64,000 nucleotides of DNA from Patescibacteria group bacterium (GTDB lineage: Bacteria; Patescibacteriota; Minisyncoccia; UBA6257; 02-FULL-45-10c). A program made the translations under genes and the position numbers. The notes beneath the pieces are model-generated. The model had not been told where the DNA came from. It did not search any database and saw only the letters and a list, made by a program, of their open reading frames with translations. The DNA lies in the NCBI GenBank assembly GCA_018969615.1, contig JAGWYA010000003.1, forward strand, positions 15,038-79,037, written 5' to 3'. The stretch's first letter is position 1. Each line of letters begins with the position of its first letter. Below are positions 1,056 to 50,547 of this stretch, piece by piece.

Positions 1056-1128
1056 ATGTATTTTTAAACTACTGCTCCCGCAAAGCCTCGCCGCAGGCGG
1101 GCAATGCTCATCTCAGAGTACCATCAAT

Positions 1129-1467: not shown

Positions 1468-1475
1468 CCCTTTTA

Positions 1476-2743: not shown

Positions 2744-3445
2744 TCAAGAGTTCTCCTCCCGCCATGCCTCGATCTGCTTATGGTCGCCCGACAAAAGCGC
2801 TTTCGGTACCCCGGCGACTTTCGACTTTCGACTTTTCACTTTTAACTTCACGCTTTCCGGCTTCGTATAGACCGGATAACTCCCCTTCTTCTCTTCCAGG
2901 GATGCCATCTTTCCCAGTACGCCGGGAACCAGGCGCGAAACCGCTTCGATCACGATCGCGGCCGGCAATTCGCCGCCGGAAAGGACGAAATCGCCGAGCG
3001 AGATCTCCTCATCGGCGACCTGCTGCGCCACGCGCTCATCCACTCCCTCATACCGGCCGCAGATAAAAATAAGCTGATCATATTTTGCGAGGCGATGCGC
3101 TTCTTTCTGGTCGAACTTCTTTCCCCGCAGCGAAAAGAGAATGACCCGTGATCGAGTTGATCTACCGCTTCGCTTGTTCGATCGCTTCACTTGTTTCATT
3201 CGAACAGCTCCATCAGCTCGAACCTTTTGGACCGCTTCCGCGATCGGTTCGGCCTTCAGCACCATCCCCGGACCGCCGCCATACGGCGTATCATCCACTT
3301 TGCGATGCTTGTCGTGCGTAAAATCACGCAAGTTATGTGTCGTGATCGTCAGCAATCCTTTTTCCTGGGCTTTCTTCAGCAGCGATTCCCCGAAATACGA
3401 ATCTAATATATTGGGAAATATGGTAATGATGTCGAATCTTTTCAT
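2744..3445 (-). CDS. trmD: tRNA (guanine37-N1)-methyltransferase TrmD, with a basic insertion (RMKQVKRSNKRSGRSTRSR)
   Basis: MKRFDIITIFP..., PYGGGPGMV, ICGRYEGVDERV trefoil-knot SPOUT motifs. Confidence 0.85.
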   Translation of the reverse strand: MKRFDIITIFPNILDSYFGESLLKKAQEKGLLTITTHNLRDFTHDKHRKVDDTPYGGGPGMVLKAEPIAEAVQKVRADGAVRMKQVKRSNKRSGRSTRSRVILFSLRGKKFDQKEAHRLAKYDQLIFICGRYEGVDERVAQQVADEEISLGDFVLSGGELPAAIVIEAVSRLVPGVLGKMASLEEKKGSYPVYTKPESVKLKVKSRKSKVAGVPKALLSGDHKQIEAWREENS

Positions 3446-4909: not shown

Positions 4910-7084
4910 TTATTCCAACTTCAAACTCAATACCTTTGAAACGCCGTCCTCTTCCATCGTCACGCCGTACAGCACATTCGCCGCTTCCATCGTCGCGCGG
5001 TTATGCGTGATCATCAGGAACTGCGTTTTTTCGGAAAAATCCCGGACAATATCCGCGAAGCGTTTCGTGTTCTTTTCATCAAGCGCCGCATCCACCTCAT
5101 CGAGTACCAGGAACGGCGGCGGGCTTACGGAAATAAGCGCGAACAGCGCCGCGATGGACACCAAGCTTTTTTCGCCGCCGGACAGCATATCAAGCCCGTG
5201 GATCCGCTTGCGAGGCAAGCTGAGCTCGATCTCAATACCGAGCTGTCTCAACTCATCGGTCTCAAGATCATCCGCTTCCTGCTGATGGATCCGAAGCTCT
5301 TTTTCTTCCTCGGTCAGATCGGCCGCCTTCGGCTCCTCAGGTTTTTCCAGCACCAGCTTCGCCTTGCCGCCGCCGAACATCAGATTAAAGAACTTATCGA
5401 ACTCTTTATTGATCTTATCCAGAGATTCATGGAACTCATGGTCGATCTTCTGCTCGAGGTCCTTGATAAGCACCTCGAGGTCCTTTGCCGCCTTCTCAAG
5501 ATCGGTCAGTTGGCCGGTCAGGAACGTATGCCTCGTCTCAATATCCTCCGCTTCCTTAATGAGCGCGTGATCGACATCGCCGATCCCCGCGATCTCGCCG
5601 CGAAGCCGGAGCATTTTCCGTTCCGTTCCCGCAAGGTCCTCTACTGCCGGCGGGTTCAACGCAAGCTTTTCGATCTCTTCCATGGTCCGGCCGATCTGCC
5701 CCACCTGGACCTCGACATCCTGGCGGCGCAAATTGATCCGTTCCACTTCGAACAATAAACGATTCTTATCGTTCTCAAGCTTCATGATCTCCTCTTTCTT
5801 CTTTTCCACCTTCTCGAACGCCGCACGGAACTCCGCGTTGAACTGTTCGTACCCTTTTGCAGATTCCTCTTCTTTTTTCGAAAGCGCCGTCAGCTCTTCG
5901 CGGATCGGACCGAGCTTCTGCATCAGCGCATCCTTGGTTCCTTTCAGGTCCTGGATCTCGCTCTTCTGTTTTGAGTTCCGGTCGGTGAACTTGGCAACCT
6001 TCTCCTGCAACGCACGCAGCTCGGCATGAACCGCCTCAAGCGTCTGTTCTTTCAAAAGCTTCACAATGCTATCCTTCACTTCCTCCAGCGCGGTCAAAAG
6101 CTCGCCGGCGCGGAGGTCAACGCGTTCGCTCGCTACCACTGAGTTCAAGAATTCCATCTTCGCCTCCAATTTCCCGACCTCGTGCTCGATCTCTGAGCGC
6201 TGCGCCAAAAGCTGGTCGCGCTGTTTGCGGATATCGCCCATGCCCGCATGCTGCGGTTTCGCCGATTCGGTCTTTTCAAGATCTTTTTTCAGCGCCTCAA
6301 GTTCTTTCCGCTTTGCCGCCATCGCCGCATCAAGCGCCGCGATCTCCGGGTCGAACTTTTTCTTTCCTTCGGCAAGCTCCTTCAGACGGTTCGCATAATA
6401 CGCATTCTCAAGATCATGCAGTTCCTTTTCAAGATCGCCAAGCTTCCCCCACTTCGCGGTCTGGCGCTTCAGGAAACGCAAATGCGGCGCGATCTCTTCG
6501 ATCGTCGCTTTCACTTTTTCAATATTGATGGAGGTGTTCTTCAACTTCCGGTCCGCCTCATGCTTCTTCAACTGATACTGGCGTAAACCGAGAATTTCCT
6601 CGATCATGGCGCGGCGCTCCTCCGGAGTCACCCGCACGAACAGATCGCTCGAACCCTGGCTGATAATGGAAAGACCGCGCGTACCGAGGCGAACCTTCGC
6701 AAAAAAATCGATGATATCCTTCAGGCGAACCTCGTCCTTATTCAAATAATAGTGCGAATTCCCGTCCCGCTCGATACGGCGCATGATCGTCACTTCTTTA
6801 TAATCCACCGGAAAGAATCCCGAGCTGTTGTCGAAGGTCATGCTCACCTGCGCCATGCCCATGCGCGGACGCTTCGGCGTACCGGCGAAGATCAGGTCTT
6901 CCGCCTTGCCGCCGCGGAGGTTCTTCGCCTCCCGTTCGCCGAGGATCCAGCGAACCGCGTCAATGACATTACTTTTGCCGCTGCCGTTCGGTCCCACAAT
7001 ACCGGCAATACCGCCGGGAAAATCCAAAACGGTCTTTTGGGCAAAAGACTTGAATCCGAGAAGCTCAAGACGCTTCAAATACAT
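4910..7084 (-). CDS. smc: SMC-family chromosome segregation ATPase, unusually short (724 aa) with no evident hinge domain
   Basis: N-terminal MYLKRLELLGFKSF...GPNGSGKSN Walker A; C-terminal LSGGEKSLVSIAALFAL signature and LVLDEVDAALD Walker B; long coiled coil between; start set at M17 of track ORF. Confidence 0.8.
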   Translation of the reverse strand: MYLKRLELLGFKSFAQKTVLDFPGGIAGIVGPNGSGKSNVIDAVRWILGEREAKNLRGGKAEDLIFAGTPKRPRMGMAQVSMTFDNSSGFFPVDYKEVTIMRRIERDGNSHYYLNKDEVRLKDIIDFFAKVRLGTRGLSIISQGSSDLFVRVTPEERRAMIEEILGLRQYQLKKHEADRKLKNTSINIEKVKATIEEIAPHLRFLKRQTAKWGKLGDLEKELHDLENAYYANRLKELAEGKKKFDPEIAALDAAMAAKRKELEALKKDLEKTESAKPQHAGMGDIRKQRDQLLAQRSEIEHEVGKLEAKMEFLNSVVASERVDLRAGELLTALEEVKDSIVKLLKEQTLEAVHAELRALQEKVAKFTDRNSKQKSEIQDLKGTKDALMQKLGPIREELTALSKKEEESAKGYEQFNAEFRAAFEKVEKKKEEIMKLENDKNRLLFEVERINLRRQDVEVQVGQIGRTMEEIEKLALNPPAVEDLAGTERKMLRLRGEIAGIGDVDHALIKEAEDIETRHTFLTGQLTDLEKAAKDLEVLIKDLEQKIDHEFHESLDKINKEFDKFFNLMFGGGKAKLVLEKPEEPKAADLTEEEKELRIHQQEADDLETDELRQLGIEIELSLPRKRIHGLDMLSGGEKSLVSIAALFALISVSPPPFLVLDEVDAALDEKNTKRFADIVRDFSEKTQFLMITHNRATMEAANVLYGVTMEEDGVSKVLSLKLE

Positions 7085-39235: not shown

Positions 39236-40147
39236 TTACTGCGGCTTCACTTCCTGAATACTCGGCGTGAATAAACTCACGGTCTGCGGGATAGATATCG
39301 TACCATCTACGTTCGTACACGAAAGTGTATAAGTCGTCGTTGCCGTCGGCGTGATCGTGACCGAGCCGTTCGTCGCATTCACCGTCTGTGTATTCCCCTG
39401 AGAATCCGTAAGTTTGCAGCTCCCCGTATCCACGACCGGATCATTATACAAGCATGTCCATTGAAGGGTTGTTGATCCGTGAGTGACCACGCTTGAACTT
39501 GCAGAACCGAATCCGCATTGCGGAAGACATTTCGTATACTCGCTCACCGGCGCGGTATCAGAGGTTGCATATCCAGACTCCGAAGGATATGGAATGCGGA
39601 TCTTATACGAGTACGTGGTGTGCGGCGTAAGCCCGGTATCAGTAAAACTTGTATCAGCTGAAGTTAGCTTGAGAACAATGACATTATCCCGCAATACCGC
39701 ATAATTATGCCCATTTGGATTAATGCCGCTAAAACTTAATGAGGTACACGTTGGAGATGCCGACGAAGAAGAAAACGTTGAAGTTGAGCTTGGCGAAGAC
39801 GAACTCGGAGCGCCGCCAGAAGGAGAGTTGCAACTACTACCGGAGAAACCCGTATTGCTACCCGTCGGATTGTTAAGATAACAATTATAACTTGTTTTAA
39901 ATGGATTTAAGCCACCGCCGCAGGGGCCAATCTTAGGATTACAGATTCCCGAAGTCATAATAGTAACCGTGGTCTGAATCGTGTAAGTAACTGCAACAGC
40001 AATAGTATTTTTAACAAAATTAACAAGCGCATTAAGATTGCCTGAACCTATTGCTTTGAGTACCTGCGCTGCATGCGCCGGAGGAACCTGCACCGAAAGA
40101 AGGAGCAGGGTGACCATTAAAAAAACTGAGAGAGATTTTGTGAACAT
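39236..40147 (-). CDS. Secreted protein with signal peptide, Ser-rich linker and Ig/FN3-like beta domains (possible adhesin)
   Basis: MFTKSLSVFLMVTLLLLSVQVPPAHA signal; SSSSPSSTSTFSSSSASP low complexity; multiple Cys pairs. Confidence 0.55.
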   Translation of the reverse strand: MFTKSLSVFLMVTLLLLSVQVPPAHAAQVLKAIGSGNLNALVNFVKNTIAVAVTYTIQTTVTIMTSGICNPKIGPCGGGLNPFKTSYNCYLNNPTGSNTGFSGSSCNSPSGGAPSSSSPSSTSTFSSSSASPTCTSLSFSGINPNGHNYAVLRDNVIVLKLTSADTSFTDTGLTPHTTYSYKIRIPYPSESGYATSDTAPVSEYTKCLPQCGFGSASSSVVTHGSTTLQWTCLYNDPVVDTGSCKLTDSQGNTQTVNATNGSVTITPTATTTYTLSCTNVDGTISIPQTVSLFTPSIQEVKPQ

Positions 40148-40175
40148 AAAAATACAAAATCCTTAAGGGGTACTA

Positions 40176-40385
40176 TTACAAAATGCTGCTGCACCCCGTG
40201 AAATGCGGCTCATCATTCGCCGTCGCTGCACAACGATCAGCCGTCTGGCGTAAGTTGCTGCTATCGGTCAGCGCAGCCTTTACCGCAACCACTGTCCGCT
40301 GCACCAACATCGCTGCCGTCATAATCAAAAAACCGATCAATACCGCTAGACCTGTATTTTTAATTGCTTGTTCGTTCGTTTTCAT
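40176..40385 (-). CDS. Hypothetical small membrane protein (69 aa) with promoter motif shared with pilA
   Basis: ORF; upstream agtataccatatcc (minus strand GGATATGGTATACT) identical to pilA upstream. Confidence 0.45.
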   Translation of the reverse strand: MKTNEQAIKNTGLAVLIGFLIMTAAMLVQRTVVAVKAALTDSSNLRQTADRCAATANDEPHFTGCSSIL

Positions 40386-40441
40386 AATGTATTTATATAA
40401 AAATGACCTTTCCTCCAGTATACCATATCCTCTTTTATATG

Positions 40442-41962
40442 CTATAAGGAACGCCTCTTAATAAGTTCAGCAATGTGCGCAAGATCCAAATCAATACCAA
40501 CTGAATCTTCCCGGCGCGGATGTGCAATTGACCGGATCTTCTTATAAAACTTCTTACCCTCAGGAGATAGTTTCTGCCACCCTCGAAGATCGGCGGCGGC
40601 ACAAACCACCATGACAAGACGCGCGAGGAGTGCCCGATTAAGATCTACGAGGTCGTACGCTGCTTCAGCCGCCAGCGTCCCAAAGCTCACGATATCCTGA
40701 TTCCCCGACTCGAATGGGCGGGACAAAACCGAATGCGGGAATGATCGTTGGACCGATTCGGCAAAATACGATCCTGCGGAAATTCCCACTCCTTTCAATC
40801 CACTGTTCAACCCGGGGTCAATACCCGCAAGACTTGGCGGAAGAATGTGATTCTTATCGCTGTCCAACAACCGGTCGATCATGGTCTGTTCCATATTGGC
40901 AAGATGCGCCAGGAGGATCTTCGCAAAATCCATCCCGAGACCGATATAAAATCCGGAAAAGTTCCCGCCATGCAGTATTTTTTTTCCATCACCATCGATC
41001 AATGGGTTATCATTCGCCGAATTCAACTCCCGCGTCACCCACAGACGCAAAAGCGAAAGGAGCTCACGATGCGGACCCAGGAATTGCGGGAGGCAGCGGA
41101 TCGAATACGGATCCTGTACTTCGCCATGGATATTCTCCGTGGATTGTGCGAGCTTGCTTCCTTTTACCTGCTTTCGTAATTCCCGCGCAGCCTCCGTAGC
41201 CCCGGGATGATTTTTAAGCTCGTGAAGAAGTTCATCGAACGGATCGGTGATCCCGCCAAGCACTTCGGTGTACATCGCCGCAGCCTTTGTAAAAACCGTA
41301 AGGAGGTATTCCATATCAGAGACCACAAAAGCCGCGACTGTCGTCATAACCGAGGTATTATTCACAACTGCCAAGGCTTCTTTCGGCATAAATTCGAGCG
41401 AGGAAGCGCCGATCATTCGAAGCGCCGATTTTGCAGAAATGGCTTTTCCGTTATGGCGAACTTTCCCCTCGCCCATCAACGCTAACGCAAGACCAGAAGA
41501 AAGAACCAGGTCGCCGCTCGCGCCCAGCGAACCATAACGTGGAACGAACGGAAGCATATCTTTTGCGAGCAACCTCTCGATCACATGAATGATCTCGGGG
41601 CGAACACCCGAATACCCCTTCGCGAAACAATTTAGGCGCGCCACCATAAATCCGCGACTGATCTCATCATTGAGAAACGGCGCACTGCCTGCCGCAAGCG
41701 AATAAACAAGCTTTTTCTGATGCCGAGCAAGATCTTTCAAAGGGATCGTAAAACGAACATTGCTACCGAAGCCCGTATTCGTACCATAGATCGTCTTACC
41801 TGTTCTCAAAGAATGATCCAAAAAATGCCTGCCGCGCTTGCTCTTTTTTATCCCCCTTAAAGAAACGATAGCCGGGCCGCTATTTCTCGCGGCATGAACA
41901 AACGCCTTGATCGAAAGAGATCGTCCGTCCAATACTATTTTCTTGCCCTTCTTTTCTTTCAT
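40442..41962 (-). CDS. MIO-dependent aromatic amino acid/histidine ammonia-lyase family enzyme (HAL/PAL/TAL)
   Basis: GSLGASGDL Ala-Ser-Gly MIO-forming triad; ~506 aa typical of the family. Confidence 0.75.
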   Translation of the reverse strand: MKEKKGKKIVLDGRSLSIKAFVHAARNSGPAIVSLRGIKKSKRGRHFLDHSLRTGKTIYGTNTGFGSNVRFTIPLKDLARHQKKLVYSLAAGSAPFLNDEISRGFMVARLNCFAKGYSGVRPEIIHVIERLLAKDMLPFVPRYGSLGASGDLVLSSGLALALMGEGKVRHNGKAISAKSALRMIGASSLEFMPKEALAVVNNTSVMTTVAAFVVSDMEYLLTVFTKAAAMYTEVLGGITDPFDELLHELKNHPGATEAARELRKQVKGSKLAQSTENIHGEVQDPYSIRCLPQFLGPHRELLSLLRLWVTRELNSANDNPLIDGDGKKILHGGNFSGFYIGLGMDFAKILLAHLANMEQTMIDRLLDSDKNHILPPSLAGIDPGLNSGLKGVGISAGSYFAESVQRSFPHSVLSRPFESGNQDIVSFGTLAAEAAYDLVDLNRALLARLVMVVCAAADLRGWQKLSPEGKKFYKKIRSIAHPRREDSVGIDLDLAHIAELIKRRSL

Positions 41963-42012
41963 AAAAAATAAATATCACCCCTAACAATGATCAAATATAG
42001 TATACTATAAAT

Positions 42013-42591
42013 ATGTTTACCTTTGCGAAAATAGCCACTATCGGAGCGTGGATTGCGATCTGGGCTAGCTCATGGACGAGCAAAAAGACCCATGCAGCAA
42101 TGCCGGAACCCATGTATGCCGAAAATCCAACCCGCATCTCTCCGTGGGGAGTTATGATCTTTTTTATATTTCTCTATGCAGTCCTTTGGATCCCTTTTCC
42201 AATCGAGGCTATTTTCCCCGTTCAATGGATCCTCGTCTCTATTTTCTTTGGCTACATCCTCTTAGCCATTGGAACACTTCTAGGCGCGTGGGCGACGTGG
42301 ACTCTGGGAAAACTTGTAACATTCTCAGGCGCGATCCCGACGAACTATTCGCTCATTGAGTCGGGGCCTTATGCCTATGTTCGTCACCCTATTCAGCTTG
42401 CTGAAATTTTGATCTGGCTCGGATCATCACTGATCTTCGTCAGCGTCCTTGGCATCCTCATGGGCGCCATCCTTCTGCCCTTGATCAAGAAACAGATCCG
42501 ACTTGAGGAAAAGAAATTACTCGAGATCAATGGCGAGCTCTATCAAGTTTATACCCGCCGGGTCGGAAGCCTTTTTCTAAAACTGTGGTAA
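42013..42591 (+). CDS. Isoprenylcysteine carboxyl methyltransferase (ICMT)/phospholipid methyltransferase family membrane protein
   Basis: Multi-TM; LIESGPYAYVRHPIQLAE motif characteristic of ICMT/PEMT family; 3' end overlaps lnt convergently. Confidence 0.65.
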   Translation: MFTFAKIATIGAWIAIWASSWTSKKTHAAMPEPMYAENPTRISPWGVMIFFIFLYAVLWIPFPIEAIFPVQWILVSIFFGYILLAIGTLLGAWATWTLGKLVTFSGAIPTNYSLIESGPYAYVRHPIQLAEILIWLGSSLIFVSVLGILMGAILLPLIKKQIRLEEKKLLEINGELYQVYTRRVGSLFLKLW

Positions 42592-44096
42592 AGGAATATC
42601 ACAAGAAGCAAGAACCCGATCAGCCACTCGCCGACATAATCGTAAATGGCAACCGCACGCTGAGTAGGAACCGACAATTGATCGGATAAGATCCCATTTT
42701 TCTCGAACTCCATCCCCGCAAGAATAGATCCGTCGGGGGCGATGATGGCAGAGGGCCCCTTACGATCTGATCGCACAACGAACACATTGTTTTCAGCTGC
42801 GCGAAACTGCGCAAGAACCACATTGCGCTCACCCATCGTTGCATCACGGAACTCGGCATCCGAACCGATCGCAAAGATCACATCGGCCCGAGAACCGTCC
42901 TGGCGCGCCAAAGGAGCATTATTCAACTCAGAACAGATCAGATCTCCGATCGTTATTCCATGAGACGTAACCAGCTGATCCTGAGGGCCCGGCACATAAT
43001 CAAAGAAGGTCGTATAATATCCCCGCCGGGCAATGAACTCCGGCGTGAAATCAAGGAACGGGAAAAGGTCTCTTTTTGCATAGGCGGACGAAAGGCCTGA
43101 GTGGTCCCAGAATTCTATCTCAGCCATGATCCCCTTCCCGGAACGAAGCGTGCTGGTCCACGTAACAAAGGTGGTTCCCGCAGGAACAAATGAGTGGATC
43201 CATGATCCAAACTGATCAAGAGTACCGCTCAAAAAATCTTTTCCCTGCTGTGAGCTCGACCCATCGGTTAAAACACCTCCGACCGGATTAAAAGGATAGA
43301 TCAGAAAATCAGGCCCCTGGAACACAGCCGCGCGCAAAAGCGACTCAGTCCGCGCCGGGAAAGAAAAGGTTCCGTCAGGAGCGATCGAGCCAAAAGGATC
43401 GCTCTCACCATTAAGCTGGGCGGTTGAAATAGTGATCTGCTTTGTCGGAGCATGAACACTCTGAAGATACACCATATTTCCTGCGAATACCGCGCAAATA
43501 ATCACCGTAATGCCAATGAGTATGAAAGCGTCTTTTTTAACCCAAGAGCGGTACACAATCGCATAGGCAAAAACCGCATTGATCAGAACAAGGATAAACG
43601 AAACTAAAAGAACGCCGCCGATACCGGCAAAGGCCATAAAGAACGGAAGTGCATGCATCGTATACCCAAGCATTCCGTAGTCAAAATAAACAAGAAGCCA
43701 TTGGCGGACCATCTCGGTCGCGGTCCACATCGCGGCGAAAAGAAAGATATCGCCCAAAGGCGTTCGTGATAGCCTCCGGAAGATCCAGGAACCTAACGCG
43801 CCGAGGCATAATGAAAAAAGAGCGATTGGGATCCAAAGAAGCTGCATTGCGATCGTTACGATCTCCGCAAAGGCATACCAATGGAATTGCATAACCACGG
43901 CGAAGGCGATCCCTAACGAAAAACAAAGTCCGAGGAGAGCCCCTGCAAAAACAGCCTGCCGAAGAGAAAATCGTCTCTTGTCATACAGGATCACTGCATA
44001 GGGAACAAGCGCAATAAACGAAAGCCACCACCAATCAAGCGGATAAAATGATGCATACAGAAGCCCTGCCGACAATAAAGACAAAAGATACACCAT
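42549..44096 (-). CDS. lnt: Apolipoprotein N-acyltransferase-like protein (N-terminal polytopic domain + C-terminal CN-hydrolase domain)
   Basis: 8 predicted TM helices then nitrilase-type domain with GDLICSELNN catalytic Cys region and terminal TM. Confidence 0.7.
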   Translation of the reverse strand: MVYLLSLLSAGLLYASFYPLDWWWLSFIALVPYAVILYDKRRFSLRQAVFAGALLGLCFSLGIAFAVVMQFHWYAFAEIVTIAMQLLWIPIALFSLCLGALGSWIFRRLSRTPLGDIFLFAAMWTATEMVRQWLLVYFDYGMLGYTMHALPFFMAFAGIGGVLLVSFILVLINAVFAYAIVYRSWVKKDAFILIGITVIICAVFAGNMVYLQSVHAPTKQITISTAQLNGESDPFGSIAPDGTFSFPARTESLLRAAVFQGPDFLIYPFNPVGGVLTDGSSSQQGKDFLSGTLDQFGSWIHSFVPAGTTFVTWTSTLRSGKGIMAEIEFWDHSGLSSAYAKRDLFPFLDFTPEFIARRGYYTTFFDYVPGPQDQLVTSHGITIGDLICSELNNAPLARQDGSRADVIFAIGSDAEFRDATMGERNVVLAQFRAAENNVFVVRSDRKGPSAIIAPDGSILAGMEFEKNGILSDQLSVPTQRAVAIYDYVGEWLIGFLLLVIFLYHSFRKRLPTRRV

Positions 44097-44114
44097 TATT
44101 CGCTAAAATAAGAA

Positions 44115-44642
44115 TTATCGATCACTCAGCTTATTTTCTAAATATGCCCTGATCTCCTTTTCAATGGACTGCGAGTCGCTATAAAAAATAAGGTCTGTTT
44201 TCTGAAATCGTTTGAGTCCCTTCAAACGATCAACGACTTCCTGCGAAGAAGTTAGGAACGCACTGAGGGTATATGTAAGCATCCATTGTTTTTCAAAATA
44301 AGCCAGATGTTCAAGGTCTTCGACGATCGCGATCGTCGGCCTTCCCAAGCCGAATGCATAACCACATTCCCATGAACTGTCAGTCCCCGCCGGACCTCCG
44401 TTCTTATCCGGAACATACTCCTTCATAAAGGCAAGGACGGCATCGCAATTTTTTATTCTATCGACATCATAAAACGCGACCCCGGGCGCGATCTTCGTAT
44501 GATCATCGGGGACGCCAAGCGTTCCGGGCTCAAAAAGATCAAGCGTTCGATTAAAAAAGGCTGAATAGCGCTCGGTAAATTCTTTACGCCACAACTTAAT
44601 AGATCCTGCAAGATATAAGCTTATTTTTTTATTTTCCTCCAT
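44115..44642 (-). CDS. Nucleoside 2-deoxyribosyltransferase-like (NDT/Rcl/YtoQ fold) protein
   Basis: ISLYLAGSI N-terminal motif and GTDSSWECGYAFG (catalytic Glu context) typical of NDT superfamily. Confidence 0.55.
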   Translation of the reverse strand: MEENKKISLYLAGSIKLWRKEFTERYSAFFNRTLDLFEPGTLGVPDDHTKIAPGVAFYDVDRIKNCDAVLAFMKEYVPDKNGGPAGTDSSWECGYAFGLGRPTIAIVEDLEHLAYFEKQWMLTYTLSAFLTSSQEVVDRLKGLKRFQKTDLIFYSDSQSIEKEIRAYLENKLSDR

Positions 44643-44654
44643 AATAATTTATAG

Positions 44655-45527
44655 TTAGATTCCCAAACTTAAGATCAATCCTACAATAAATCCAAATATA
44701 TAAGTGATATAGATCATCCATTGGAATATTTCAACGCCCCTTTCCTCTAAGTGCCCCTCATGCATGTTCCACAGTATAAAGACCGGGAATATGGATCCCA
44801 ATAAAGCTATAAAATAGAATCCGCCGAAAACTAAGAGAAGCAGGAAAAATATATAAAAGGTCAAACTCAAAGCCAGCCCTTTTTGCTCCGATCCTAATCG
44901 GACTATCGAGTTTTGAATCCCGGCAGCCGCATCGTAAGACATATCAAGGGCAGCCCCTAAACAGTGTCCTCCTGCCATAAAAAGAATTCCAAGAAAAATA
45001 AGATAGGCGCCGGGCATCTTATTGATAGCTGCCGCATATCCGATCATGCTAATAAGCATGTAATGACCGACGCCTCCGAAAAGGATATCGGTAACTGGAT
45101 ACTGCTTAAACCTAAAAGGAGGGATATTATAGGCGCCAACAACTAAGATCCATACCACAACTAATAAAGCAGTAAGATTTGAAATAAACGGGAAAAGAAG
45201 AAACGCTGGAAGCAAGCTGACCGCAGCTACCGCTGAAACGCTTCGCCTTTCTTCCAGAGCGATAGTCGGCTCAAGAGCTTGCTTTCGCGGATTCCGGCGA
45301 TCAGTTTCATAATCAAAAATATCATTAAGTCCATTTAAAAAAATATTCGCCGGGACCGTAAACCATAAAAATAGAAGGAGGTACGGCAGTTCTCCAAATG
45401 ATGCGCCCTTATTTGCTAAAATGCCTCCCAATAAAAAAAATCCCGAGCTCCAAACCCAAAAATGAGGGAATCGCGAGATGCGTATGATCCGAGAAAGATC
45501 AAGGGATTGCTTTGCGGAAGATCGCAT
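44655..45527 (-). CDS. UbiA-family membrane prenyltransferase (paralog 1)
   Basis: NDIFDYETD (NDxxDxxxD) and DMSYD second Asp-rich motif; 8-9 TM helices. Confidence 0.7.
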   Translation of the reverse strand: MRSSAKQSLDLSRIIRISRFPHFWVWSSGFFLLGGILANKGASFGELPYLLLFLWFTVPANIFLNGLNDIFDYETDRRNPRKQALEPTIALEERRSVSAVAAVSLLPAFLLFPFISNLTALLVVVWILVVGAYNIPPFRFKQYPVTDILFGGVGHYMLISMIGYAAAINKMPGAYLIFLGILFMAGGHCLGAALDMSYDAAAGIQNSIVRLGSEQKGLALSLTFYIFFLLLLVFGGFYFIALLGSIFPVFILWNMHEGHLEERGVEIFQWMIYITYIFGFIVGLILSLGI

Positions 45528-45536
45528 ATGCTTATA

Positions 45537-46391
45537 TTACTGCACAAGCAGCAGTGACGCAATGAAGCCGATAACGTAATGTAGATAAATGAAATAACGG
45601 TACCACCTAACCTGATCCGTATATTTTTTTCGGAGCATAAAATGAATAAGGAAAAAAAGCGCATATGCCATACCCAAAACCATTAAAAGGGGCTGATTCG
45701 CTAGAATAAGGACCCCGGAGAAAATAAAGGAAAGAATGATGCATACGAGCAAATTACGCCCCTCAGAGCCTATAAAAACAGCTGAGGTTATAAGTCCTGC
45801 GTCTTTATCGGATCGTATATCGGCGATGGATGTATACATATGCATGGCGATCGCAAAAACAAATAAAGCGAGGAGTATCAAAAAGGGCGGGGCCTTATCC
45901 ATAGTCGCCATATAACCCATCACGCCCCATAGTGGAAAGTTAACAGCGAAGAAGAGATCCCAGAATGGCCGGCCCTTAAAACGCAAAGGGGGCATATTAT
46001 ACATGACCACAATAAGCAGCCATAGCAAAAACAATGCTTTTATTGCATTTGAAAACTGAGAAATGATCCAAAACGCCGGAACCAATGCGAAAGCCGCAAG
46101 GGTCAATAAGCTTTTCCGTTCTCCGAACGATGCGCGATGTTCGAATTCATCCTTTTTAGGATTATGAAGATCCGTTTCAAGATCATAAGCATCATTGAAT
46201 GCATAGAGAAACAAATTCGCTGGGAGGGTCAGCCAAAGCGTAAGCCAAATAAGATCAGGTGAAAATACATGTATTATATTACCGGTACCCACCTGTACAC
46301 CTAAAGCAAAAGAGCCGACCGTATAGATCCAGATCCTCGGCCTGGAAATAAACAGGATCTTTTTAAGAAATTCCATACCCGGACTAATCAA
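45537..46391 (-). CDS. UbiA-family membrane prenyltransferase (paralog 2)
   Basis: NDAYDLETD motif, PPLRFK loop shared with paralog 1 (PPFRFK). Confidence 0.7.
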   Translation of the reverse strand: MISPGMEFLKKILFISRPRIWIYTVGSFALGVQVGTGNIIHVFSPDLIWLTLWLTLPANLFLYAFNDAYDLETDLHNPKKDEFEHRASFGERKSLLTLAAFALVPAFWIISQFSNAIKALFLLWLLIVVMYNMPPLRFKGRPFWDLFFAVNFPLWGVMGYMATMDKAPPFLILLALFVFAIAMHMYTSIADIRSDKDAGLITSAVFIGSEGRNLLVCIILSFIFSGVLILANQPLLMVLGMAYALFFLIHFMLRKKYTDQVRWYRYFIYLHYVIGFIASLLLVQ

Positions 46392-47652
46392 TATGATTGA
46401 TCAAATGCCTTGTTTTCTCGGTTTTTGTTGAAAGTGCATCAACAAACTTCACCTGCGGCTTCAAGATCATCCCTTTCATCACCGCATCTCCAAGCGTTAC
46501 ATAAGACGTCAAATGCCATGTATGCATTAACGTATCGATCACCGATGCGCCAAGCTCATTATTACTAGGGACAGCGAGCTCAACAATCATTTCAGTCTCC
46601 ACACCGCCGCTCTGTAATTTCTGATAAAAATGAACCTGGTAGCGATCACCTATCGTATCAGCAAACGAAACCATGATCCGCTCGAGGTCGGTTAGTTTAA
46701 ATTCCATACCCGCGATCCTGACCACGTCCGCATTGACCCTTCCCTTCCACTGTAGAGTAGGCTTTCCGCAAGAGCACTGCGCATCGGCATACGCGAACAT
46801 ATCTCCGGTCCGATAGCGGATCAACGGCATCGCCGCATTTCCAGCATAGGTAATAACCAGCTCGCCGGTATCCAAAAGCTCAGTCGCTAAAAGCGCCGGA
46901 TGCGGATGGAACAATTCAAGATCCTTCTCAATGAGCTCTTTGCACGGAAACAAGATATACTGTCCGATCTCGGAAGAAGCGTACAAATTAACAATCTTCG
47001 CGGCAGGATAGAGCTTCTGAAGCTGTTCCCTTCGTGCGGCGGATAGCGTTTCACCGCAAAGACCGACTAAATGAAGCTTTCCGGGATCATAGTACTTCTG
47101 CACATACGGATGAAGCATAAATGCCAGTGTCGGGGTTGCAAAAAGCGCATCAGCCTCACACCGCTGGGCGATCACCGCACTGTTCGGCAAATTATAGATA
47201 TCCCCGAAAATAGGGTAAGACCCCGTCCCCGCCTCGTCGCACTGCTGAGCAAGTGTATGGCTAAAATGCTTATTGATCGGGGGGAATAAAAAGAATAATC
47301 GCTGGACCCCAAGCCCAAGCGTCGGATCAAACTGATAATTCGGGATTTTCGCATAATACGTGATCAGCGGCATCTGACTCGTCGTCCCCGAGGAATACGC
47401 CGCAAAATAGATCTCTTCACGGGGAATGTAAAGCCGCTGCAGCGGATCAGTTGCCTGAAGCTCAGAACGCTCAAGAAAAGGAAGTTTTAAAAAAATTGAG
47501 GGATCAACAAGGAGGTCAGGAGTTAGTCCTGCTTGTTCGTATTTTTTACGATAAAAAATTGCATGCGGGCTATCCCACACCATTTTCAAAACTTCCTTTA
47601 TTTTCGGAAAAGAGATCTTATCCATAAACCCTGTATCCATAGCATAACGCAA
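46384..47652 (-). CDS. PaaK-like adenylate-forming enzyme (phenylacetate-CoA ligase / F390 synthetase / CapK family)
   Basis: YSSGTTSQMP AMP-binding motif, YRTGD motif; 8-bp overlap with downstream UbiA gene. Confidence 0.7.
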   Translation of the reverse strand: MRYAMDTGFMDKISFPKIKEVLKMVWDSPHAIFYRKKYEQAGLTPDLLVDPSIFLKLPFLERSELQATDPLQRLYIPREEIYFAAYSSGTTSQMPLITYYAKIPNYQFDPTLGLGVQRLFFLFPPINKHFSHTLAQQCDEAGTGSYPIFGDIYNLPNSAVIAQRCEADALFATPTLAFMLHPYVQKYYDPGKLHLVGLCGETLSAARREQLQKLYPAAKIVNLYASSEIGQYILFPCKELIEKDLELFHPHPALLATELLDTGELVITYAGNAAMPLIRYRTGDMFAYADAQCSCGKPTLQWKGRVNADVVRIAGMEFKLTDLERIMVSFADTIGDRYQVHFYQKLQSGGVETEMIVELAVPSNNELGASVIDTLMHTWHLTSYVTLGDAVMKGMILKPQVKFVDALSTKTEKTRHLINHID

Positions 47653-47720
47653 AACGGAAGCGGAGAAAATAAAAAAGGCCCCTATGACTGTGTGTACACA
47701 ATCATAGGGGCTGTAATGCC

Positions 47721-48380
47721 TTACCAGTACCAGGACAGACTAGCCTTCGTCACGCCGCCGTCCGAATTCAGCTGACCGGCCGCGGAATTCACGCCTTTCG
47801 TTGAAAGATTGGCGAGAACTCCTTCGGTCGCGACGTCGAACGAAGCGACGACCGCCGAACGATACTTCGTCCCGTCCGCCGACTTCCAGCCGTGAAGCAG
47901 GACATCCACGCCGGCATCGAAACCGGCGTACGAAGACAGGATCCCCTGATTGTACTTTCCGGAATCCAGCTTCGACATCGGTCCGACCGCCACGGTCATG
48001 AACGTATGGAGACCGACCGGCCACCGATGCGGATCATCGAACGGATTCGTCACGAATCCGACGCGGCCGCCGACGCCCGTGAAGTTCAGCTGCTTCTGCG
48101 AAGTGGTCACCGTGCGCTGACGCACCGCGAGACCCCACGACAGACACAGCCAGCGACGGTGGAAGTCCCAGTTCAGGTCGGCGCCGCGCACCGGATCCTT
48201 TTCCTGGAGCACGGGCACGGTCTGACCGCCCATCAGGAGAGTGCTGCTGTAGCTTCCCCCCATCACGTCCGAGACCTCGAGTGACTCCTGCTTGGAGTGC
48301 TTCACCCACGACGCGAAAGCCTGGCCCGTCAGGCCGAGGCAGAGCGCAAACGCCAGCACGACCTTGGTCATGTTTTTCAT
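47721..48380 (-). CDS. Secreted beta-barrel-like protein with OMP-type C-terminal aromatic residue (…SLSWYW); gene noticeably GC-rich
   Basis: Signal peptide MKNMTKVVLAFALCLGLTGQAFA; alternating hydrophobic pattern; terminal W. Confidence 0.5.
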   Translation of the reverse strand: MKNMTKVVLAFALCLGLTGQAFASWVKHSKQESLEVSDVMGGSYSSTLLMGGQTVPVLQEKDPVRGADLNWDFHRRWLCLSWGLAVRQRTVTTSQKQLNFTGVGGRVGFVTNPFDDPHRWPVGLHTFMTVAVGPMSKLDSGKYNQGILSSYAGFDAGVDVLLHGWKSADGTKYRSAVVASFDVATEGVLANLSTKGVNSAAGQLNSDGGVTKASLSWYW

Positions 48381-48482
48381 ACTTCCTCCTGCCTTTCGGC
48401 ATTACTTGCCCTTATGGGCACGAAATTGTGAACGAACTTATTATAAGGATAGCACAAAACAGGCTATTTGTCAACTTCCCTC

Positions 48483-49718
48483 TTATTTGTGCTCGGGACC
48501 TAGTAAAACCCGCGTAAATCTCTCCGGAGCGAGGTAAACACCCACAGCCTTCTCAATATCTTGGATGGTAATATCTTGAATTGCCGCCTGAACCTCCTCA
48601 TAGCCATAAGGCTTTCCCAGCGTTACCGTAGAAGAACTGGCTCCCATTATAATATTCCATGGGTTCTCAAAACGAAGCGCCAATGAGCCCAATTCCATTC
48701 TTTTTGCTTTTTCTAAAAGAGCCTCATTGCGCTTATTAGCATCTATAAGTGGCAAAGCAGTATCGATCGCTTCTTTATATTTCTCTTTTGACGTCGCCAT
48801 ATAAATAACGAATAATCCAAGGTCTGTTAACCAATGATAAGAGGCAGATGCTGAATAACACAAACCCCGCCTATCTCTAATTTCTTGAAATAAAGGAGAC
48901 GCCATCCCTCGTCCAAGCATAGTCGCGAACAGATCAAGGCACCACTTTTCTTTTATGCTTGCATTCAGGATCGGGACGGCAACATACATATGCATTTGAT
49001 TAAGCGGTCGATGGAAAATATATTCTTTTTCTAAAGGGAAATAAAGAGTCTCGTCTTTTCCCCGTTTATTCCGTTCACCGGATATCGGTGCTGTAAAATA
49101 CGAATCGAACATCCTCACTGCCGCATCAGGATCAATACGACCTGCGGTAAAAAAAGTGAAATTCGCAGAGTTATAATACTGCTTCATAAAATCAATAAAA
49201 TCCTCTCGTTGCAGGGCCAAAAGAGAGCGCTCATTTCCAAGGGTTGGATGGGCTAGAGGATGCCCCTTAAAGATAGCCTCGTAGGCAAGGTCATATAATG
49301 CACCGGAAGGATTATCCTGCTTCCTCTTTATTTCTTGCAAGATAACATTGACCTCTTTCTTGATCTTGTCCTCGGGAATCAAGGGATGCTGGATCTGCTC
49401 ACTTAAAAAATCGACTCCTCGCTCAAATTCTCTGAAAGGAACCTGGTTCAAAAAGAACGTTCGTTCCTTTGAAGTAAAACCGTTCTTAAATCCACCGACA
49501 TCCTCGATATATTCAGCAAGCGACCGCTGATCAGGAAATTTTTTTGTTCCTTGAAAAAAAAGATGTTCGAAACTATGGGCCAGCCCCGCCTCATGCGGGA
49601 GACGCTCGTCTCGCGAGCCAACATTTACCATAACACCCGAAGCGACCGAGTTTGCTTCCGCCATAGGGAATATATAAAGGGGAACGCCACTTTTGGTATC
49701 TTTTCGTATAAAACGCAT
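48483..49718 (-). CDS. M16-family (pitrilysin/insulinase-like) zinc peptidase
   Basis: HSFEHLFFQGT inverted HxxEH zinc-binding motif; 411 aa. Confidence 0.75.
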   Translation of the reverse strand: MRFIRKDTKSGVPLYIFPMAEANSVASGVMVNVGSRDERLPHEAGLAHSFEHLFFQGTKKFPDQRSLAEYIEDVGGFKNGFTSKERTFFLNQVPFREFERGVDFLSEQIQHPLIPEDKIKKEVNVILQEIKRKQDNPSGALYDLAYEAIFKGHPLAHPTLGNERSLLALQREDFIDFMKQYYNSANFTFFTAGRIDPDAAVRMFDSYFTAPISGERNKRGKDETLYFPLEKEYIFHRPLNQMHMYVAVPILNASIKEKWCLDLFATMLGRGMASPLFQEIRDRRGLCYSASASYHWLTDLGLFVIYMATSKEKYKEAIDTALPLIDANKRNEALLEKAKRMELGSLALRFENPWNIIMGASSSTVTLGKPYGYEEVQAAIQDITIQDIEKAVGVYLAPERFTRVLLGPEHK

Positions 49719-49750
49719 ATTAAAAATCTACCATTTCTTATGCAATAAAA

Positions 49751-49780
49751 AAAGGACATTCGTCAGAAATGTCCTTTAAG
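49751..49780 (-). terminator. Intrinsic terminator (aaaggacatt-cgtcag-aaatgtccttt, T7 run on minus strand) after small peptide gene
   Basis: Seen in sequence. Confidence 0.65.
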
Positions 49781-49786
49781 CACCTA

Positions 49787-49897
49787 TCAGTACGGGCCCG
49801 ACTCGTTCGCCGTGTCCGCGCTGTCGTTGCCGTCGTTCCCCTGCTCGGCCGCTGGAGTGTCGTCCGTTCCGTCGTCGGTGCCAGGTCCTCTGGTCAT
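49787..49897 (-). CDS. Small acidic Gly/Asp/Thr-rich peptide (36 aa) with consensus ribosome-binding site; not in ORF track
   Basis: Manual translation MTRGPGTDDGTDDTPAAEQGNDGNDSADTANESGPY; AAGGAG 6 nt upstream of ATG; own terminator. Confidence 0.5.
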   Translation of the reverse strand: MTRGPGTDDGTDDTPAAEQGNDGNDSADTANESGPY

Positions 49898-50028
49898 AAG
49901 ATCTCCTTTGAGGCTTTAAAGTACTGCAGCTGCGAGTAATAATGCCAAAGCATCACCCCGCAACACTTACTTTATACACCTTGATCTTTATTTTTTCAAG
50001 AGAAAAAACTCGTAAAATAGTATTGGAC

Positions 50029-50547
50029 CTACGGCAACGTGCGGGCACTCACCGTGGTCTGCAAATTCACTACTGGATCAGTGAACGGCGAGCCGGCAGC
50101 CCCTGCCTGAAGCACAATAGTAATGCGCGGAGGATACGGATTCCCTGCGGTTCCGGTAAAAAGAACGAACTGCAGGTTCTTCACCAGCACATTATCAGCC
50201 GTGATCGGCTCAAACGTGGTCCCGCCATCCGCACTGCGTTCGATCGCGGATGTCGCGCTATTCACGCGATAGACCACAGAATCGTTTTGCGCATTCATAA
50301 ACTGAAGCTCGCCGTTCACGACGGAAAAGCCCTGTCCGGTCCGAACCTCACGCGCGATCTGCTCGATCGCCGAGCTGCTATTTCCTTCTGCGGCCAGGAT
50401 CGCAACGGTCTCATGCTGGGTCCGCAGAATATGAATGAACGCCCCCGTCGTGATCGCGATCACGACAAGAAAAAGCCCCATGGCAACGATCATTTCCACA
50501 AGCGTAAATCCTGACTCCCGACGAATTTTTGAGAAAAAAGAAAGCAT
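50029..50547 (-). CDS. Type IV pilin-like/pseudopilin protein
   Basis: Prepilin leader ...KIRRESG|FTLVEM; start set at ATG 50547. Confidence 0.7.
   Translation of the reverse strand: MLSFFSKIRRESGFTLVEMIVAMGLFLVVIAITTGAFIHILRTQHETVAILAAEGNSSSAIEQIAREVRTGQGFSVVNGELQFMNAQNDSVVYRVNSATSAIERSADGGTTFEPITADNVLVKNLQFVLFTGTAGNPYPPRITIVLQAGAAGSPFTDPVVNLQTTVSARTLP

Follow-up and report, generated by a model that had tools for sequence, protein, structure and literature searches.

What does a 36-codon ORF do immediately beside the gene for an M16 zinc peptidase, and is it a gene at all? Both questions arise in the stretch of DNA that we analyzed, a 64-kb window from a Patescibacteria (CPR) bacterium. 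An earlier note had picked out this unannotated ORF for an acidic peptide and placed it downstream of the peptidase gene. Pfam matches confirm that an M16 gene is the neighbor, but the order is the reverse: the small ORF is 68 nt upstream (5') of the M16 gene, and both are on the minus strand. The pair does lie where the note put it, between a lipid/prenyl block (Lnt, two UbiA proteins, and a PaaK-like ligase) on one side and a type IV pilus locus on the other.

We argue below that the ORF is very probably a real, translated gene, and we lean towards a functional link between its product and the peptidase. The conjunction of the two, a real microprotein gene that is also tied to the peptidase, seems to us evenly balanced. 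That the microprotein is specifically a substrate or pseudo-substrate of the enzyme is a more tentative proposal. Everything that we say about the function of the microprotein is inferred from synteny.

The small gene and its expression signals

The ORF is predicted to encode MTRGPGTDDGTDDTPAAEQGNDGNDSADTANESGPY, with five Thr, two Ser, and no Cys. An AlphaFold 2 (AF2) model of this 36-mer has a pLDDT of 57 and no secondary structure. Across both strands of the window, it is the sole ATG-initiated ORF of 15-70 aa whose product is acidic and of low hydrophobicity. The local GC content is elevated, as had been claimed: the small ORF has a GC content of 0.68 (0.83 at third codon positions, or GC3), versus 0.43 (GC3 of 0.41) for the M16 gene. 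Its codons are biased accordingly, with 7 GAC and no GAT, and 3 AAC and no AAT. The features of the locus are listed in Table 1.

Table 1. Features of the small gene and the adjacent M16 gene, with positions in the 64-kb window.
Feature	Position	Strand	Details
M16B (insulinase/pitrilysin family) zinc peptidase, stand-alone	48483..49718	minus	411 aa; PF00675 + PF05193
-10-like box TAGATT	49725..49730	minus	6 nt 5' of the M16 ATG; candidate promoter for a leaderless M16 mRNA
Intrinsic terminator of the small gene (predicted)	49744..49777	minus	11-bp stem, 5-nt loop (scan scoring), T7 tail
Probable microprotein gene	49787..49897	minus	36 codons; acidic product, predicted disordered, net charge -8, pI about 4
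Shine-Dalgarno sequence AAGGAG	49903..49908	minus	5-nt spacer to the ATG of the small ORF
5' leader stem-loop (predicted)	49931..49962	minus	UGCGGGGUGAUGC-UUUG-GCAUUAUUACUCGCA
Candidate sigma-70 promoter of the small gene	49971..49999	minus	TTGAAA (49999..49994), 17-nt spacer, TATAAA (49976..49971)

The near-consensus boxes upstream of the small ORF may well be its promoter. We read them from the sequence (a simple promoter scanner did not list them), and they align with TTGACA / TAgTAT-type boxes at four related loci (L001, L002, L005, and L007). About 2-4 nt past the predicted transcription start, a stem-loop begins, with a folding energy of -15.1 kcal/mol (z = -2.7). The orthologous leader hairpins have energies of -14 to -18 kcal/mol (z = -2.4 to -5.1), and RNAalifold predicts 13 pairs, of which 3 are preserved through two-sided changes. 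The hairpin occurs once in the 64-kb window and once per related locus; L008, L009, and L010 retain the acidic ORF but not the hairpin. The stem-loop does not match any family in Rfam 15. A search of positions 49650..50100 against Rfam 15 found nothing meaningful at E ≤ 10, and in the window as a whole, only tRNAs reached the gathering scores. When we scanned a metagenome collection with a degenerate pattern for the hairpin, we recovered only the organism of L005 again (L015) and a chance match in a coding region (L014), so the leader is rare in that collection.

The ribosome-binding site is AAGGAG, as first noted, but it is 5 nt from the ATG instead of 6. It is indeed stronger than those of most genes here: of the window's 57 long ORFs, just 4 have a Shine-Dalgarno match of 6 nt, and another 2 have a match of 5 nt. 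A TATAAT-like box stands just 5' of the ATG of many long ORFs. A match of 4-7 nt precedes the first small ORF in every complete orthologous locus that we scored (at L009, the scoring covered the first ORF only, and L016, where the ORF is truncated, was not part of it).

The small gene also has the private terminator that was claimed for it. The hairpin, AAAGGACATT-TCTGACG-AATGTCCTTT followed by T7, begins 9 nt past the stop codon. A hairpin with a T-rich tail also follows the stop codon at L001, L002, L005, L007, L008, L009, L010, and L016; the distance from the stop to the terminator is 5-13 nt in most of the loci. The transcript predicted between promoter and terminator is discrete and about 220 nt long, and its fold as a whole is not exceptional (z = -1.85).

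The M16 gene probably has a promoter of its own, since TATAAT-like boxes are found 6-10 nt 5' of the M16 ATG at all loci, including two that lack the small ORF (L003 and L004). Given the strong terminator between the two genes, and the -10-like box before a leaderless-type M16 start, the small gene and the M16 gene look separately transcribed.

We considered an antisense ORF (49769..49939 on the plus strand) and rejected it. It has no Shine-Dalgarno sequence, and both the candidate promoter and the terminator point along the minus strand. Also, changes at the third position of sense codons would fall at the first position of antisense codons and would mostly be non-synonymous.

Conservation of the small ORF and its linkage to M16 genes

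The earlier note had proposed looking for homologous small ORFs beside M16 genes in relatives and estimating dN/dS among them. We found such homologs, and among the microprotein orthologues of L001, L005, and L007, dN/dS is 0.18, 0.12, and 0.06. In the 25 C-terminal codons that the window shares with its closest relative, L002, 19 of the 28 differences affect the third codon position, and both loci encode TPA[AV]EQ.N..ND.AD.ANESGPY despite using GC-ending codons in the window and AT-ending codons in L002. The small ORF of L007 has a 3-nt indel, which keeps the frame. Judging from these alignments, the substitution pattern is of the coding type and the conservation is at the level of the protein, which is why we are confident that this is a genuine small protein gene. 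The note had held that a lack of conservation, conservation of nucleotides only, or a non-syntenic M16 neighbor would speak against it, and we found none of these.

The peptides of this family are about 24-50 aa long, have net charges of -4 to -14, lack hydrophobic segments, and are predicted to be disordered. They are mosaics of short motifs and fall into several motif subfamilies, which keep the composition, the charge, and the length class. Across all of the subfamilies there is no cleavage motif and no single conserved residue beyond Met1, so a composition-driven function fits as well as a specific enzyme-substrate pair. The peptides end in GPY, DTD, DTG, DAD, PKD, PTS, or EDD. The only two cysteines in the family are both in the truncated L016 peptide, and the Thr and Ser residues of the window's peptide are not kept from one subfamily to another. 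At L009, there are four ORFs of this type, arranged as two mini-operons.

These genes nearly always escape gene callers. The ORF in the window was rightly described as unannotated, as the exact peptide is not recorded as a called gene. In a collection of about 15 billion proteins, profile searches with the peptides returned just two called family members (P0121 and P0122, neither of which has a name), along with one non-match at E = 5.7. With permissive E-values, none of 8 peptides matched a Pfam-A family, and none of the 6 of these that we compared to NCBIfam matched a family there. Exact look-ups of the peptide and of the M16 protein in a contig index found nothing, a megablast comparison of the region with plasmids was negative, and our literature search did not find a description of such a microprotein-M16 pair.

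One or more acidic small ORFs are found directly upstream of orthologous M16 genes (encoding proteins that are 47-71% identical), and on the same strand, in 8 of 10 distinct loci, which is a small sample with several loci from related groundwater samples. (The loci listed with an acidic small ORF are the window, L001, L002, L005, L007, L008, L009, L010, and L016.) Each of these small ORFs has a Shine-Dalgarno sequence and a terminator. Nearly all of the outer flanks differ between loci, and the pair alone is conserved: the upstream outer neighbors include a pseudopilin (twice), Lnt, a class-Ib aminoacyl-tRNA synthetase, an AbiEii-like gene, and unknowns, and the downstream ones include NusA, HrcA, a nitroreductase, a Pyr_redox gene, and unknowns. 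At L001, a 43-codon relic of Lnt lies immediately 5' of the small-gene promoter, so a breakpoint there left the promoter, the ORF, and the M16 gene together. Applying the same ORF filter elsewhere in about 139 kb (the 64-kb window and about 75 kb of related loci) gave nothing. A scan of genome contigs with the M16 protein found one locus only (L001).

At L003 and L004, the orthologous M16 gene is present with a tRNA-Lys gene in place of the small ORF, so the peptidase does not need the microprotein gene in cis. In a neighbor-joining tree of the peptidases, the deepest branches already have the ORF, and the two loci that lack it are nested within the clade. P0015, which is the next M16 relative (42% identity), is outside of this module: it belongs to a pair of tandem M16 genes that lacks a small ORF. 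We also considered whether a 219-aa protein encoded downstream of the M16 gene is conserved at L001, and rejected this, as homology was undetectable by BLASTP (E = 1.3). As far as these comparisons go, the microproteins are a fast-evolving and lineage-restricted family that is co-inherited with one M16B gene in a Parcubacteria-type lineage of the CPR.

The peptidase itself is 100% identical to "insulinase family protein [Patescibacteria group bacterium]" at NCBI. We assigned it to M16B, for which we required a single chain of about 400-450 aa (this one has 411 aa) that matches both PF00675 (E = 9e-27, 94.2 bits versus a cut-off of 22.3) and PF05193 (E = 2e-32, 112.8 bits versus a cut-off of 23) above the gathering score. 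H48-x-x-E51-H52, E122, E129, and R284...Y288 are invariant in 13 M16 orthologues. The roles of these residues (the inverted HxxEH zinc motif, the distal Glu ligand, and the Arg/Tyr pair in the C-terminal domain of the self-sufficient homodimeric type) follow the M16 literature, PMC12731061 included. With all of the catalytic residues kept, the enzyme is, by its sequence, catalytically competent. Its closest solved structure is 3HDI (the homodimeric BH2405 from B. halodurans, E = 7e-43), and going only by this similarity, it would form a clam-shell homodimer around peptide substrates. L008 has a second M16 gene near the pair, so the enzyme may instead form a heterodimer. The peptidases of the clade have net charges of -7 to +2, versus a median of -14 for 100 other M16B matches. 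We view this higher charge as weak evidence for a link to an acidic peptide; the higher pI of the clade could also be mere CPR proteome composition.

A putative ligand of the peptidase and the alternatives

By its signals, the small gene is a transcription unit of its own, with a near-consensus promoter, a 5'-terminal stem-loop that may be of the mRNA-stabilizing kind known in bacteria, a strong Shine-Dalgarno sequence, C-ending codons, and a terminator. Together, these features predict high expression. We propose that the microprotein is the cognate ligand of the neighboring M16B enzyme. Its own promoter would supply the peptide in excess, and a separate, leaderless-type promoter would drive the enzyme. 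M16 chambers can hold unfolded peptides as long as about 65 residues, and PqqF takes in the 25-residue PqqA (PMC12731061). In one version of our proposal, the microprotein is a substrate: an unfolded peptide of a size (about 24-50 aa) that suits the chamber would be enclosed and cut by the clam-shell dimer. Alternatively, it might be a pseudo-substrate that fills the chamber and gates the enzyme. Among the roles suggested in the earlier note, the peptidase substrate or small regulator is thus our best reading, which we infer from the conserved pairing. The secreted signalling peptide is not supported: we found neither a signal peptide nor a double-glycine leader, and an adjacent exporter is not conserved.

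The main competing explanation, which we think is less likely, is that the microprotein is a disordered protein that works independently of the peptidase and through its charge, and that the two genes are adjacent by inherited synteny, with no functional connection. It might be a polyanion that buffers cations or polyamines, a "hero"-like solubilizer, or a mimic of nucleic acid or of the substrate of some other partner. The small gene's own promoter, terminator, and strong Shine-Dalgarno sequence would fit with this, as would the M16 genes of L003 and L004 that do without it, and the preservation of composition, charge, and length amid sequence turnover is typical of proteins that depend on charge instead of on a fold. 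The spacer between the two genes is short (about 50-100 nt), which makes breakpoints within it less likely a priori, but this explains merely a 2-3-fold bias, and both outer flanks changed at nearly every locus while the junction of the ORF and the M16 gene was kept at 8 of 10. Also, the low dN/dS within subfamilies (0.06-0.18) implies selection on the specific sequence, beyond its composition.

The other explanations are that the ORF encodes a peptide that is processed into a product, that it is a regulatory leader peptide, or that it is incidental to a functional RNA. Our data do not support PQQ-like, Pup-like, secreted-signal, attenuator, or sRNA readings. It is improbable that the ORF encodes the precursor of a RiPP, a PQQ-like cofactor, or a secreted signal, with the M16 protein as the leader or maturation protease. 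The gene order (small gene, terminator, M16 gene) is like that of precursor-plus-protease loci, the peptides of the window and L002 end in E-S-G-P-Y with the E-x3-Y spacing of PqqA, and the M16 protein weakly matches a PqqF model (TIGR02110, E = 2.7e-22). However, that match scores 79.3 bits versus a cut-off of 320, which undercuts the analogy to PqqF and leader-peptide processing in the earlier note, and E-x3-Y is missing from the peptides of L001, L005, L007, L008, L009, and L010. At no locus is a radical-SAM protein, PqqB/C/D/E, a cyclase, a dehydratase, or an exporter conserved beside the pair, and the peptides have no Cys/Ser/Thr-rich core. Attenuation is slightly less probable still: the richness of the ORF in Asp, Glu, Gly, and Asn codons, along with the order of ORF, nearby terminator, and M16 gene, could suggest a leader peptide that senses Asp, Glu, or Gly and controls read-through into the M16 gene. 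But we see no antiterminator pairing in the predicted fold of the transcript (the terminator forms in both the minimum free energy and the centroid structures), attenuator leaders are not usually under purifying selection for their amino acids, a -10-like box precedes the M16 gene itself and is kept where the ORF is absent, and the four ORFs in two mini-operons at L009 also speak against attenuation. Least probable of all is a non-coding sRNA or cis-regulatory RNA with an incidental ORF. The discrete transcript would suit an RNA gene, its best-conserved segment is the untranslated 5' hairpin, with compensatory changes, and several frames are open in this GC-rich sequence. Yet the changes concentrate at position 3 of the sense codons, the indel is in frame, the Shine-Dalgarno sequence and the ATG are conserved, three loci without the hairpin still have the acidic ORF, and neither the Rfam searches (even at E = 10) nor the fold of the whole transcript point to a structured RNA.

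The most far-reaching form of our ligand proposal is that the acidic microproteins are dedicated natural ligands, either substrates or chamber-plugging regulators, of a stand-alone cytosolic M16B peptidase, in a minimal two-gene module of the CPR. This is speculative, and we consider it less likely than not. If it is true, the microprotein would be the first natural partner for an M16B enzyme of the BH2405/YmxG type, and co-diversification of peptide and enzyme would account for the mosaic of motifs. A microprotein gene that stays beside the gene of such an enzyme is a concrete lead to its substrate. If the link to M16 is merely historical, this is one more unannotated small gene. The analysis also adds a conserved and evidently translated microprotein family to the CPR/Patescibacteria. 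It shows, too, that in a largely SD-poor, leaderless-looking genome, a transcript that is probably abundant has a 5' hairpin and a strong Shine-Dalgarno sequence as its expression signals.

Comparison with known systems

Two known gene arrangements, sboA-alb and pqqA-pqqF, combine a precursor with a protease. As in the PqqA/PqqF system, a very small peptide gene is linked here to an M16 zinc peptidase, the peptide would fit the M16 chamber, and E-x3-Y is found near the C-terminus in the window and L002. The differences are that the enzyme is a 411-aa M16B protein that scores far below the PqqF cut-off, that there are no pqqB/C/D/E genes, that E-x3-Y is not family-wide, and that the peptides are polyacidic and 24-50 aa long. 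In the subtilosin system, the heterodimeric M16B proteins AlbE and AlbF act on a dedicated ribosomal peptide, the subtilosin precursor SboA (PMC12731061). The order of a precursor-type small gene, a stem-loop, and then M16B is shared with our locus, which has one M16B gene instead of a pair, lacks a radical-SAM (AlbA), ABC exporter, or immunity gene, and encodes a peptide without Cys or hydrophobic residues.

Pup and UBact are small, acidic, intrinsically disordered modifiers that are encoded beside a protease gene, and our microproteins resemble them in all of these respects. But the peptides here lack the C-terminal GGQ/GGE, they are shorter (24-50 aa versus about 64 aa for Pup), and the neighbor is an ATP-independent M16 peptidase. 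Pfam scans of the neighboring genes found no PafA/Dop ligase or proteasome genes.

Like BH2405/YmxG (3HDI), the peptidase is a single chain of about 410-420 aa with HxxEH, a C-terminal R/Y pair, and no signal peptide. It differs in that the CPR clade is less acidic and in that a partner microprotein gene has not been described for BH2405/YmxG. The review PMC12731061 lists no natural substrate for BH2405, and few physiological substrates are known for bacterial cytosolic M16B proteins of the BH2405/YmxG type.

The small ORF and its expression signals

Directly upstream of the M16B zinc peptidase gene lies a 36-codon ORF that encodes an acidic microprotein. The earlier note had this ORF downstream of the peptidase, which reverses the actual order: both genes are on the minus strand, and the ORF comes first. 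The consensus ribosome-binding site and the private terminator that it described are both present (AAGGAG, and an 11-bp stem followed by T7). It was also correct that this ribosome-binding site is unusually strong, since a 6-nt Shine-Dalgarno (SD) match precedes just 4 of the 57 long ORFs in the window and a 5-nt match precedes 2 more. Strong SDs in the window are restricted to a few genes, and a TATAAT-like box abuts the start codon of many long ORFs. Many starts have such a box 5-10 nt 5' of the ATG and no SD (for example, 2710, 3445, 22682, 30769, 42013, and 44642). Much of the host genome looks leaderless.

We filtered both strands of the 64-kb window for acidic ORFs (ATG start, 15-70 aa, net acidic, few hydrophobic residues), and the small ORF was the sole match. 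It has a GC content of 0.68 and a GC3 of 0.83 (GC3 is 0.41 for the M16 gene and ~0.68 for the window background). Its two-fold codons end in C (GAC 7, GAT 0; AAC 3, AAT 0), its SD and terminator are strong, and its 5' leader has a hairpin; together, these signals suggest a highly expressed and stable mRNA. A -10-like box abuts the M16 ATG, which suggests that the M16 transcript is separate and of the leaderless type.

Features of the small gene and the M16 gene in the window, and the corresponding loci (L numbers) around relatives of the M16 protein; identities are to the window M16 protein
Feature or locus	Position	Strand	Details
Small ORF	49897 to 49787	minus	encodes MTRGPGTDDGTDDTPAAEQGNDGNDSADTANESGPY
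AAGGAG SD	5 nt 5' of small-ORF ATG	minus	
Terminator hairpin	starts 9 nt past small-ORF stop codon		11-bp stem, T7 tail
Candidate promoter	49999..49971	minus	TTGAAA-17-TATAAA, read by eye
5' stem-loop	begins 2-4 nt after predicted transcription start of small gene		32 nt
M16 peptidase gene	starts 49718, 68 nt past end of small ORF	minus	411 aa
-10-like box	immediately 5' of M16 ATG		TAGATT
L002	directly upstream of M16	same as M16	71%; MRKKSSIDEDEEIPDPPEPVEDQGQDSTPAVEQENNDNDDADSANESGPY
L001	directly upstream of M16	same as M16	60%; MKGPGNGQEGADSQYEGDRGQGEGTHNADTD
L005 (= L006, L015)	directly upstream of M16	same as M16	58%; MKGPGNGQEGADGQYEGDHGQGEGTHNADTG
L007	directly upstream of M16	same as M16	60%; MKNGPGNGQEGADGQYEGDDNQGEGTHNADAD
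L016	upstream of M16	same as M16	57%; ...GNIGGCDPEPEDGGCVPSF (ORF clipped by contig end)
L008	directly upstream of M16	same as M16	55%; MGEENDWDDEAAEEQENLPEDSPEDPKD
L010 (= L011)	directly upstream of M16	same as M16	50%; MPGWPWIPFGDDDDPPEGTVPDDDGESEDD
L009	upstream of M16	same as M16	47%; four acidic ORFs, 16-28 aa, two mini-operons
L003	tRNA-Lys(UUU) gene 2814..2885	opposite	70%; small ORF absent
L004	tRNA-Lys(UUU) gene 5..76	opposite	61%; small ORF absent
L012/L013, outgroup	second M16 gene (tandem pair) upstream		42%; small ORF absent

Coding signature and the encoded peptides

Among L001, L005, and L007, synonymous and non-synonymous codon changes occur in ratios of 4:3, 8:4, and 10:4, and dN/dS is 0.18, 0.12, and 0.06 (Nei-Gojobori). 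The ORF in L007 has one additional codon and keeps the frame. The last 25 residues of the window peptide align with those from L002 (DDTPAAEQGNDGNDSADTANESGPY and DSTPAVEQENNDNDDADSANESGPY); synonymous sites are saturated in this pair, and codon position 3 holds 19 of the 28 nucleotide differences. L008, L009, and L010 keep the acidic ORF without the window-type leader. Given the synonymous excess, the position-3 differences, the in-frame indel, and the ORFs that lack the leader, the small ORF is, on this comparative evidence, a protein-coding gene under purifying selection. Analysis of dN/dS had been proposed in the earlier note, and it points to selection at the protein level. We are highly confident that the small gene is real and translated.

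The small-gene RNA has no match in Rfam. Its 5' hairpin is conserved (13 pairs by RNAalifold, 3 with changes on both sides; folds of -14 to -18 kcal/mol), and it lies outside the ORF at the extreme 5' end, with one copy per locus. Stem-loops at the 5' terminus have an established role in stabilizing mRNA. From five sequences, we infer that this one is an mRNA-stabilizing or expression element.

The peptides are 16-50 aa overall (24-50 aa for the principal ORF adjoining M16), with net charges of -4 to -14, pI ~4, and GRAVY of -0.95 to -2.2, and they have neither a signal peptide nor a hydrophobic segment. In a single-sequence AF2 structure prediction, which is indicative only, the window peptide had no secondary structure (pLDDT 57, pTM 0.13). 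Motifs are distributed across the loci as a mosaic: N-terminal GPG (window, L001, L005, L007), AAE(E)Q (window, L002, L008, the first ORF of L009), PEPEDG (the third ORF of L009, L016, the N-terminal half of L002), and DPPEGT (the fourth ORF of L009, L010). The peptides have no family matches in Pfam or NCBIfam. Across 5.8 billion clusters and 1.84 billion representatives, we found two called members, both unnamed; the family is undescribed and almost never gene-called.

Linkage to the M16 gene

We retrieved the DNA surrounding eleven M16 orthologues. The orthologues form a tight clade (39-71% identity), and relatives outside it are at most 34% identical. Homologous small ORFs beside M16 genes in related genomes, which the earlier note had proposed to look for, are present in 8 of the 10 distinct orthologous loci, window included. 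An SD match of 4-7 nt precedes the ORF in the complete loci, and a terminator hairpin follows it in all loci with the ORF. With an SD requirement added, our filter found no such ORFs in ~75 kb of related loci outside the position upstream of M16. The ORF is already on the deepest branches of a neighbor-joining peptidase tree, in which the ORF-less L003 and L004 are nested within the window/L002 subclade; this nesting implies that they lost or relocated it secondarily.

Two of these loci have other peculiarities. A 750-nt gap upstream of M16 in L009 (2241..3000) holds ORFs of 26, 16, 28, and 24 aa as two promoter-ORF-ORF-terminator units, which suggests that the microprotein gene was duplicated and diversified. 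The database protein call at L002 (P0002; 446 aa; 447..1787) is over-extended: the true M16 start is at 553, and the called N-terminus overlaps, in another frame, the 50-aa acidic ORF and its terminator.

The outer neighbors differ. The small ORF is preceded by a pseudopilin gene (window, L001), Lnt (L005), a class-Ib aminoacyl-tRNA synthetase (L008), an AbiEii-like gene (L010), or an unknown gene (L002, L009). The gene following M16 varies in nearly all loci (NusA, HrcA-GrpE, nitroreductase, a Pyr_redox gene, unknowns). In L001, a 43-codon relic of the Lnt C-terminus (5619..5747; 67% identity to L005's intact Lnt, E = 2e-19) separates the small-gene promoter from the last pseudopilin gene and directly adjoins that promoter, so a rearrangement broke the sequence just beside the unit without splitting the promoter, ORF, and M16 gene from one another. 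The ORF-M16 spacer is ~50-100 nt, and breakage there is somewhat less likely a priori; by our reckoning, this is insufficient to explain retention in 8 of 10 loci. Because this junction is kept and both outer junctions are almost wholly turned over, we see moderate evidence that the linkage is under selection, in a small sample confined to one CPR lineage. The comparison shows co-inheritance of the small gene with the M16B peptidase gene, and the small gene bears strong expression signals. (Upstream of Lnt in L005, a 281-aa gene at 535..1380 has an odd combination of 23S_rRNA_IVP/bAvd-like and weak N_methyl Pfam matches.)

In the window, a type IV pilus locus lies upstream in the direction of transcription (PilM/N, two T2SSE ATPases, T2SSF, pilin-like N_methyl proteins, and an A24 prepilin peptidase). 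Past the M16 gene are a 219-aa signal-peptide protein, a PaaK-like ligase, two UbiA prenyltransferases, Lnt, and an aromatic amino-acid lyase. A low-GC block (39236..49718; GC 0.42-0.50 and GC3 0.41-0.53, versus a background of ~0.55 and ~0.68) includes the lyase, Lnt, both prenyltransferases, the ligase (PaaK/FlxY-like), and the M16 gene, and is possibly an acquired accessory island serving an aryl/prenyl lipid. It encloses two GC-rich genes: the 36-aa ORF and the 219-aa gene (47721..48380, minus strand; GC 0.62, AGGAGG SD, C-terminus -SWYW), whose product has no Pfam matches. L001 has a 199-aa signal-peptide protein at the same position (C-terminus -IFYW), with no homology to the 219-aa protein detectable by BLASTP (E = 1.3).

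Possible roles of the microprotein

An NCBI entry from 'Patescibacteria group bacterium' matches the window M16 protein at 100% identity, and our search of species-representative genomes with the window protein gave a single locus, from a Candidatus Harrisonbacteria MAG. Across 13 orthologues, no substitutions occur in HxxEH, in the distal Glu residues, or in the C-terminal R...Y pair; since all catalytic residues are kept, the peptidase is presumably active. The nearest solved structure is BH2405 from B. halodurans (3HDI, E = 7e-43), an M16B homodimer for which no natural substrate is listed; unfolded peptides of up to ~65 residues fit inside M16 chambers, and PqqF takes the 25-residue PqqA (PMC12731061).

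We tentatively propose that the microprotein is a cognate ligand of the M16B peptidase. It would be a disordered substrate sized for the chamber or, alternatively, a pseudo-substrate that gates the enzyme. Peptide and enzyme would be expressed from separate promoters, so their ratio could be adjusted independently. Other M16B matches are markedly more acidic than the peptidase clade (median net charge -14, versus -7 to +2 in the clade); the difference is compatible with an acidic ligand but may be mere CPR proteome composition. Against a cognate ligand are the separate-looking transcription, the two loci without the ORF, and the lack of any conserved cleavage motif. Of the competing explanations, the strongest is that the microprotein works through its charge, with no connection to M16; we consider this somewhat unlikely.

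A precursor of a PQQ-like cofactor or a RiPP is improbable, as tests for membership in these groups came out negative. A Pup-like modifier is less likely as well, as the C-terminus is wrong. If the ORF were an attenuator leader peptide, we would not expect selection on the peptide sequence or a -10 box belonging to the M16 gene itself, and we saw no antiterminator in the folded transcript, so we consider this improbable too. The coding signature rules out an sRNA for practical purposes.

As a new conserved microprotein gene, the finding stands on firm ground; with its function inferred, it is also a good starting point for experiments on M16B substrates. A tiny peptide gene beside an M16 peptidase is an arrangement already known from PqqA/PqqF and SboA/AlbEF. 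Unlike in those systems, the M16B here is single and stands alone, without modifying enzymes or an exporter, and the peptide family is polyacidic and disordered.
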